Shown here in pieces: positions 43,660-46,600 of a DNA stretch of 64,000 nt. The position numbers were made by a program. The stretch's first letter is position 1, and each line of letters starts with the position of its first letter. Source of the DNA: Escherichia coli (GTDB lineage Bacteria; Pseudomonadota; Gammaproteobacteria; Enterobacterales; Enterobacteriaceae); assembly GCF_036507355.1 (NCBI RefSeq), contig NZ_AP027877.1; one strand, given 5' to 3'.

Positions 43660-46600
43660 TCGGATAAGATGCGCCAGCATCGCATCCGACAATAAGTGCC
43701 GAATGCGACCTACATTCACATGGCGCTTTTTACATCTGACGGTTTTTATTGAAGTTAATCAAACTACCTGCCTTGATAATCTCGCGCTCTTCAGCAGTCA
43801 GACTTTCCATATAGAGCGTAATTTCCGTTACCGGCGCATCTTCATGGATCACATAACCTTTAAACGTCGTACCCGGATTATCCAGCGCCGCTTTAATGCC
43901 AGGGATGTAAATGTAATCCCCCACTTCAAAGGTTGGTACTTCCGCCATTTGCAGCGGTAACATCCCCCAGTTGATGACGTTAGAACGATAGCGTTTAGTC
44001 GCGTACTCCTCGGCAATATTCGCCAGACCGCCAATCACACGCTGGCAGCTCGCCGCCTGTTCACGCGCAGAACCATCGCCTGGTTTCACCGCATAGACCA
44101 TGCTGCCAATTTCAGTTTGCAGCGGATCAATATGCTCCTGACCAGCAATCTGCTTAATGCGCGCAAACACCTCTGTCAGCTCGCTGACATTCCCCGCCAG
44201 ACGCTGATTTTCCAGCTCAGCAGTCGCTTTACTTCTGCCAACATAACCGGGATCGCGGCGAGACAGGGTAAACTCCGCCAGACCAATCGGATTTGAACGA
44301 TAAGAAGAGGTTTCACCGGAAGGGATCAGTTCGTCGGTGGTGGTCACTTCGTCGAGGATCTTCGAGCACACTTTGAGGACGATATTGTCAGTCAGCGCAC
44401 CTAATTCCGGCCAGTCTTTAATGTTCGGTCCGTAAATCAGCGGTTGCTGAGTTGCCCCTTTCACAAAGCCCTGATAAACACGGTTTTTATACGGCGTTAC
44501 ATCGAAGGCGTACTCCGGCACGTTGTCCCAGCAATAAAGTTCGCTGGCAGAAGTTAAATAGCCACCGTTTGCCGCAGTCGCAGCGATAGAACGAGCGTCC
44601 ATCAACGCCACCGCTGACATCTGCCCATTGGCTGGCTTAGAGCCTTCGCGATTCGGGAAGTTACGCGTGGTGTGGCGAATACTCAAACCGTTGTTGATTG
44701 GCGTATCGCCCGCGCCAAAGCATGGGCCGCAAAACGCGGTTCTGATAATTGCGCCTGCGCCAATCAAATCTGCTACCACACCTTTTTTGGCTAAATCCAT
44801 AAACACCGGTGAGGTAGCCTGAGTTTAACGGACACTCCTTCCTGAAATAGAATGGCATCAGAAGGAGCTAATAATGAGCAGAAAAACCCAACGTTACTCT
44901 AAAGAGTTCAAAGCCGAAGCTGTCAGAACGGTTCTTGAAAATCAACTTTCGATCAGTGAAGGCGCTTCCCGATTATCTCTTCCTGAAGGCACTTTAGGAC
45001 AATGGGTTACCGCCGCCAGAAAAGGGCTCGGTACTCCTGGTTCCCGCACGGTGGCTGAACTGGAATCTGAAATTCTGCAACTGCGTAAGGCGTTAAATGA
45101 AGCTCGCCTTGAGCGAGATATATTAAAAAAAGCAACAGCGTATTTTGCACAGGAGTCGCTGAAAAATACGCGTTAATCGAACAATGGCGACAACAATTTC
45201 CCATTGAAGCGATGTGTCAGGTATTTGGTGTATCCAGGAGCGGTTATTACAACTGGGTACAGCATGAACCCTCAGACAGAAAACAAAGTGATGAGCGGCT
45301 AAAACTGGAGATTAAGGTGGCACATATCCGCACTCGCGAAACATATGGAACCCGGCGGCTCCAGACGGAGCTGGCAGAGAATGGCATCATCGTTGGTCGT
45401 GACCGACTGGCACGTCTTCGTAAGGAGCTAAGGCTACGCTGTAAGCAGAAACGCAAGTTCAGAGCGACTACGAACTCGAACCACAATCTGCCAGTTGCGC
45501 CAAATCTGCTGAACCAGACGTTCGCTCCTACAGCACCAAATCAGGTCTGGGTGGCGGACCTGACGTATGTTGCCACACAGGAGGGATGGTTGTACCTCGC
45601 TGGCATCAAAGATGTTTATACGTGCGAAATTGTCGGCTACGCCATGGGAGAGCGCATGACAAAAGAGCTGACAGGTAAAGCCCTGTTTATGGCGCTCAGG
45701 AGCCAGCGCCCACCTGCCGGGCTAATCCACCACTCTGATCGAGGTTCACAGTACTGCGCATACGATTACCGGGTCATACAGGAGCAGTTTGGTCTGAAAA
45801 CATCAATGTCGCGTAAAGGTAACTGTTACGACAACGCTCCGATGGAAAGCTTCTGGGGAACGCTGAAAAATGAGAGCCTGAGCCACTATCGTTTTAATAA
45901 CCGGGATGAAGCCATCTCAGTAATACGGGAATACATTGAGATTTTCTACAATCGTCAGCGTCGTCACTCTCGTCTGGGGAATATCTCCCCGGCAGCCTTC
46001 AGGGAAAAATATCATCAGATGGCTGCTTAAAAAAAGAACAAATGGTAGTGTCCGCTATTGCCAGTACACCTCACCGGCTGTGATGACGGGTAAACCGCCA
46101 ACGAGAAGGTGTCATTGCCACAGGATTGACCGCGCAGTGCATTCGCCGCCGCGATGACGTTTTCGTAGTTACCGCCAGAACAGCCCGCGATAATCCCCTG
46201 CTGCACTTTCAGGCGACCATTTTCCACTTTATCCAGCAGCGAGAGTTTGGCTTTACCGTGCGCCACGCGTTCGGACTCAATTTCAATCTCACGCAGAATG
46301 TCGGTCAGGTTCTGGTTCAGTGTGTCGATTTCATACACGTTGCTCGGGTGGAACGGCAGCGCAATCATTGGTTTGATGGCGCTTAAATCAACGCTGATGC
46401 AGCCATCGTAGTACGCCATCGGTTGAGGGTTAAGCTGGCAGTAATCCTGGCCGCGACCGTGCAGCGCCAGCCAGTTATGGACTTCTTCATCGGTTTGCCA
46501 GACAGAACTTAAACAGGTCGTTTCAGTGGTCATAACGTCAACGCTGTTACGGAAATCGGTAGAGAGCGCAGCAACACCGGGACCTACGAATTCCATCACT

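Follow-up and report, generated by a model that had tools for sequence, protein, structure and literature searches.

The element at positions 44810..46073 (+ strand) of the window, by which we mean the whole 64,000-nucleotide stretch of Escherichia coli contig NZ_AP027877.1 (assembly GCF_036507355.1) that was analyzed, is almost certainly a complete copy of the IS3-family element IS600 that has entered the gene ybhJ by a simple insertion. It is 1264 bp long, its transposase genes lie antiparallel to ybhJ, and the insertion point is codon 396 of ybhJ, which is the last gene of the ybhH-ybhI-ybhJ cluster and encodes a poorly characterized putative hydratase related to aconitases. IS600 itself is already known, and what is new is only the insertion site.

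IS600, originally described from Shigella sonnei, is a long-known member of the IS3 group within the IS3 family. In a megablast search the 1264-bp element was 100% identical, over its full length, to at least 12 copies annotated as IS600 in complete E. coli genomes (RefSeq/PGAP), and it is on this nucleotide identity to PGAP-named copies that the element is called IS600. The original prediction had placed it in the IS3 family, which was right and can now be sharpened to the named element. Near-full-length copies (at least 80% of the 1264-bp query, megablast) are found in 1613 of the 5426 complete E. coli genomes. Eight of the identical copies were fetched, and in each the transposase is annotated by RefSeq/PGAP as a two-piece coding sequence, WP_085948186.1, with the remark "programmed frameshift", at offsets that correspond to 44874..46030 of the window. 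The window copy thus shares with IS600 its ends, the layout of orfA and orfB, the A7G site and the 385-aa product WP_085948186.1; it differs in its insertion site and in having a target-site duplication of 4 bp instead of 3 bp, as discussed below.

The left terminal inverted repeat (IRL; 44810..44836, + strand) begins with 5'-TG and reads TGAGGTAGCCTGAGTTTAACGGACACT, while the right one (IRR; 46047..46073, + strand) ends with CA-3' and has the reverse complement TGAGGTGTACTGGCAATAGCGGACACT. When IRL is set against the reverse-complemented IRR, 19 of the 27 positions agree, including the terminal TGAGGT and the block CGGACACT. The inverted repeats that had been described as matching are therefore present, terminal TGAGGT included, but are imperfect. 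The IRL 27-mer is unique in the window, where chance would give 0 occurrences. A length of 1264 bp and ends of the form TGAGGT...ACCTCA are as found in the IS3 family, whose members are about 1.2-1.55 kb long and have imperfect inverted repeats of the type 5'-TG...CA-3'. The right end can be placed at 46073 from the comparison with eight other IS600 copies, in which the base after ...ACCTCA is variable (g, g, c, a, c, c, c, t). A search of positions 40000-48000 with Rfam at a permissive threshold gave no match inside IS600, and elsewhere gave sub-threshold matches to the REP-derived naRNA4 together with matches at chance level.

As a yardstick, we used a sample of 87 IS600 copies from public viral and prophage contigs (loci L021-L140). 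Twelve of the 87 are identical to the window copy, 69 have A7 at the slippery site, and 57 have an intact 385-aa fusion, from which it is concluded that the window copy is the commonest, undamaged form of IS600.

Removal of IS600 and one CCGG joins 43730..44809 to 46078..47259 and gives a sequence of 2262 nt, encoding 753 amino acids in 753 codons with a single terminal stop. This aligns without gaps to ybhJ of K-12 (b0771), with 59 nucleotide and 5 amino acid differences. Failure of the two halves to align contiguously with the K-12 gene is the result that had been named in advance as counting against the insertion, and the alignment after excision is gapless. The accompanying statement that ybhJ is intact in K-12 agrees with the annotation of b0771. 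The identity of the gene is clear both from its colinearity with b0771 over the full length and from the gene order ybhD-ybhHIJ-ybhC, which is as in K-12; Pfam Aconitase and Aconitase_C domains are recorded on intact ybhJ alleles. The K-12 site reads ...CACAGCCGGTGTTT... and has one CCGG. Ten further intact ybhJ alleles, which were obtained through exact look-up of the YbhI protein (approximately 70,000 blocks, YbhI being very conserved), are colinear with the excised sequence, and in each of them CCGG is single. The 191-bp empty site constructed in silico is contiguous in 5376 of the 5426 complete E. coli genomes. The description of the insertion as in-frame needs to be qualified: the two halves do share a frame after excision, but with the element in place ybhJ is cut short after codon 396.

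The closest empty site is on a contig of 3,699 bp (L141; Logan assembly, run ERR3330519), which was found by exact-sequence look-up of the neighboring IS110-family transposase and is present in three samples. It carries an intact ybhJ of 753 aa beside that transposase. Compared with the window from which IS600 and one CCGG have been removed, it is identical at 3699 of 3699 bases, without gaps, and this includes the adjacent IS621. The exact empty site thus exists in the same genetic background, which indicates that the insertion is both simple and young. The suggestion of a simple recent insertion is in this way backed by the K-12 alignment and by a contig with the same IS621 allele. Judged on these sequences, the insertion is recent, because its flanks are identical to those of an uninterrupted public allele and the element has no private mutations, with the proviso that 3.7 kb of identity to an empty-site contig has limited power for dating.

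The target-site duplication, read directly from the sequence, consists of CCGG at 44806..44809 on the left and CCGG at 46074..46077 on the right; it is single in K-12, in the ten other genomes and in L141. Relative to the empty site there are 1268 bp of extra DNA, which is 1264 + 4. Target duplications in the IS3 family are 3-5 bp long, and CCGG lies within this range. It is longer than the 3 bp expected of IS600. Among the eight IS600 copies from complete genomes, four have clean repeats, all of 3 bp, and 80 distinct IS600 contexts on viral contigs gave 28 clean repeats of 3 bp and none of 4 bp; in the other 52 contexts the repeat match is at chance level, and these have presumably been rearranged. 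The duplication is therefore 3 bp in 32 out of 32 other clean cases sampled, and the CCGG in the window is the sole exception among 33. The length of the duplication concerns the integration event and not the identity of the element. A 3-bp duplication could be recovered if the base after ...ACCTCA were counted as part of the element, and this was rejected, given that the base varies among the other copies.

There is another way to obtain the usual 3 bp, namely that the duplication is CGG or CCG and that the insertion brought with it one nucleotide of donor flank from the junction of an IS circle, the inserted DNA then being 1265 bp. In the circles of IS3-family elements a few bases of flank separate the joined ends, the 1268 bp of extra DNA fit 1265 + 3 just as they fit 1264 + 4, and the 32 clean 3-bp duplications are what would be expected if 3 bp were the rule. 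Nevertheless, an extra terminal base beside a 3-bp repeat is seen in no other sampled copy, and occasional 4-bp duplications are within the range of the family. Both readings fit the sequence; we consider carry-over of a nucleotide to be possible but rather unlikely, and prefer a true 4-bp duplication, which would arise from a target cut staggered by four bases. If carry-over did occur, the nucleotide would be the footprint of an imprecise paste-in, left in nature by the copy-out-paste-in intermediate.

The coding capacity of the element is as expected for the IS3 family. The ORF list and profile matches identify orfA (44874..45176, + strand), which encodes a protein of 100 aa that forms the helix-turn-helix (HTH_Tnp_1) regulator or DNA-binding part, and orfB (45212..46030, + strand, counted from its first ATG), which encodes 272 aa forming the catalytic rve/DDE part. 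The orfB frame is -1 with respect to orfA (45212-44874 = 338; 338 mod 3 = 2). The slippery run A AAA AAA G is at 45125..45132 (+ strand), where the zero frame reads TTA AAA AAA GCA; in the orfA frame A AAA AAA is a heptamer of the X XXY YYZ type, and the run is predicted to be a site of -1 programmed frameshifting. When a -1 slip is simulated by re-reading base 45131 (44874..45131 joined to 45131..46030, + strand), the resulting OrfAB transposase is open for 385 aa. The window copy thus has the two-ORF organization of the family, comprising an orfB in the -1 frame, an A-rich slippery heptamer and an open fusion. All the coordinates given originally for the element, orfA, the orfB stop, the A7G run, the CCGG repeats and the two ybhJ fragments were confirmed on the sequence. 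The length of the slippery run varies among the 87 sampled copies, being A6 in three and A8 in three, compared to A7 in 69. With A8, orfA and orfB would share a frame, which might be expected to give a constitutive OrfAB fusion.

The fused protein matches NF033516 (IS3 family transposase, an NCBIfam equivalog) over positions 1-369 of 369, with 414.5 bits against a cut-off of 160. Pfam matches on the same protein are HTH_Tnp_1, HTH_21, rve (E = 1e-25) and rve_3/rve_2. In the fused protein the catalytic triad is made up of D229, D289 and E325, with spacings of 60 and 36, and there is a lysine (K332) at E+7; the triad codons are at 45557-45559, 45737-45739 and 45845-45847. The three residues lie inside the Pfam rve match, which bears out the DDE motifs that had been noticed in OrfB. 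A DD(35)E motif with K seven residues past E is a signature of the IS3 family, and the protein has the rve core, the DD(35)E arrangement and the K/R at E+7 of the family transposases.

Immediately 3' of the slippery run, an RNA hairpin is predicted at 45134..45174 (+ strand). It has a perfect stem of 9 bp (GCGUAUUUU/AAAAUACGC) and ends at the orfA stop codon. Its folding energy is -13.1 kcal/mol (z = -2.29), and 5 out of 200 shuffled sequences fold as well. From its position, it is likely to be a stimulator of frameshifting. Upstream of orfA, the left end contains a promoter-like site TTAACG-17-TAGAAT (44825..44853, + strand) that matches the consensus at 9 of 12 positions; such matches in the left end are weak and no commoner than in shuffled sequence, and a promoter function for this site is putative. 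A Shine-Dalgarno-like AAGGAG (44862-44867) can be read six bases before the ATG of orfA.

These features suggest how the element would move, following the frameshift and copy-out-paste-in scheme that is established for the IS3 family. For this IS600 copy, a weak promoter in the left end would drive expression of orfA. Some of the ribosomes that reach A AAA AAA G, helped by the hairpin, would slip back by one base and so produce OrfAB, the DDE transposase. OrfAB would then excise a circular copy in which the two ends abut (copy-out), and this circle would be inserted where the target has been cut with a stagger (paste-in); repair of the cut would give the short direct repeat. IS911 and IS3 are the experimentally studied models for this family, both for the -1 frameshift and for copy-out-paste-in via a circle. 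They are alike with the window copy in having a helix-turn-helix OrfA, a DDE OrfB in the -1 frame, an A-rich slippery heptamer with structured RNA, TG...CA ends and short duplications. They are, however, different elements: the window motif is A7G rather than A6G, the window hairpin is a prediction, and the mechanism is assigned by family homology.

All the sequence features needed for movement are intact in the window copy. Since the copy is intact and the insertion recent, it could quite probably still transpose. The alternative is that it is intact but silent in this strain, for instance because it is repressed by OrfA from many sister copies or needs a transposase provided in trans, in which case the insertion would be a fixed mutation. 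IS3-family transposition is kept tightly down by OrfA and by a low rate of frameshifting, and the weak 9/12 promoter match in the left end, of a kind no more frequent than in shuffles, would also be consistent with silence. On the other hand, this copy has the commonest IS600 sequence, L141 shows the exact site unoccupied in the same background, and IS600 has recently been active in Shigella populations (PMC7373316). Silence of this copy is therefore considered improbable, and a transposition-competent IS600 is preferred.

It is very improbable that the site instead marks a breakpoint where two IS600 copies recombined or an inversion took place between them, or that the repeat was wrongly placed in ybhJ during assembly. 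Rearrangements at IS600 are indeed common, as judged by the 52 of 80 sampled contexts without a clean duplication, but here the sequences on either side belong to a single gene, whose halves keep both orientation and register; there are also a perfect direct repeat and a 3699/3699 match to the uninterrupted allele, and a wrong placement would not make a target duplication.

The occupied site was looked for in several collections. None of the 5426 complete E. coli genomes has a match that covers 80% of a 400-bp junction probe, so that the occupied junction counts as absent from all 5426. Neither the GTDB species representatives nor the JGI metagenome contigs contain the exact 35-mer that spans the left junction. 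Exact look-ups of the proteins likely to be called from the disrupted gene (a 5' half of 410 or 418 aa fused to the IS, and a 3' half of 358 or 356 aa) found none on record; these look-ups are uninformative, because short-read contigs break at a multicopy IS and NCBI gives pseudogenes no protein. In the literature, nothing usable was found on IS600 in ybhJ, nor on a 3-bp duplication by IS600 or the IS3 family. Given that the empty site is public and the occupied site is in none of the 5426 complete genomes, ybhJ::IS600 is usable as a strain or lineage marker.

The insertion divides ybhJ into two fragments on the - strand. The 5' fragment (46074..47259, codons 1-396) reads on for 14 extra codons into the IS and stops at 46027-46029, and the 3' fragment (43730..44809, codons 396/397-753 and the stop) is without promoter or start signals of its own. 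The break parts the predicted Fe-S ligand Cys360 from Cys421 and Cys424. With the aconitase-type cysteines on opposite sides of the break, a functional YbhJ is very unlikely, and from the sequence ybhJ is very likely to be null. The genes ybhH, ybhI and ybhD are intact. Because ybhC is convergent with ybhJ, no gene downstream of ybhJ is exposed to polarity. In the intergenic region between ybhI and ybhJ, within the 158-bp spacer upstream of ybhJ, there is a sub-threshold match to the Rfam family V_AS5 (47313-47436, + strand) that extends over the full length of the model, with 40.3 bits (gathering score 96) and E = 4e-6. This is probably either a chance match or a conserved leader.

Several other mobile elements and strain-specific segments are found in the window. 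Downstream of ybhJ, 75 bp past its stop, is an IS621-type element of the IS110 family (42380-43656). Its transposase ORF (42485-43465, - strand) is intact and encodes 326 aa, matching NF033542, "IS110 family RNA-guided transposase", with 256 bits. Its non-coding left end (approximately 43466-43656, - strand) is where one would look for a bridge RNA. The element sits between REP-like sequences and overlaps the empty site of loci L007 and L010 by 2 bp. IS621 is found at the same spot in just 2 of the 5,426 complete E. coli genomes, one of the two copies being frameshifted, and the exact protein allele occurs on only seven public contigs. Between bioA and ybhB there is an insertion of 1273 bp relative to K-12 (39126-40398), which is present there in 381 of 5,426 genomes and whose equivalent in RefSeq is annotated as "RNA-guided endonuclease InsQ/TnpB family protein". 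The frame in the window is split into three ORFs on the - strand (121, 112, and 206 aa) and looks frameshifted. No TnpA gene was seen adjoining this copy.

Further to the left, a segment of 4.3 kb (10500-14793) between rhlE and dinG takes the place of the K-12 ybiA region; this island is present in 156 of 5,426 genomes. It encodes a protein of 670 aa with a weak match to SopA/HECT-type E3 ligases (83 bits), which goes under the name of the type III effector EspX2 in the annotation of other genomes, and has an ORF of 561 aa (13005-14690) with neither an NCBIfam nor a PADLOC match. The 17.9-kb flank to the right of IS600 (46078-64000) is 99.2% identical to that of the best complete RefSeq E. coli genome out of 5,426 searched, which indicates that the lineage is not among the RefSeq complete genomes designated E. 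coli. A Shigella-like, EIEC or otherwise unrepresented lineage is plausible. The flank in 42300-47400 is 100% identical over 3.7 kb to the Logan short-read contig L141, so the lineage is represented in public sequence data.

IS600 is one of five insertion sequences that are still expanding in Shigella and enteroinvasive E. coli (EIEC) (PMC7373316), and IS expansion in these organisms leads to inactivation of metabolic genes and to variation in pseudogenes from strain to strain (PMC7373316, Hawkey et al. 2020). The window is similar to this pattern (PMC7373316) in that there are other mobile-element insertions within 7 kb. The gene ybhJ is not mentioned in the available parts of PMC7373316, and such of its supplements as are accessible are without ybhJ, ybhI, and ybhH. 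The disruption of ybhJ is an ordinary strain-specific event, one more insertion of IS600.

For annotation, the consequence is that the element is to be named IS600 and ybhJ an IS-disrupted pseudogene. The insertion carries no new transposition biology, and all that stands out is one duplication of 4 bp where IS600 otherwise produces 3 bp. Both ybhH and ybhI are under the control of Nac and YbhD. YbhD represses ybhH and ybhI, and the cluster has a proposed link to the use of malate or tricarboxylates (PMC9068703). The insertion is one more example of a metabolic gene lost to an IS, in this case from the ybhDHIJ cluster with its proposed malate/tricarboxylate link (PMC9068703).
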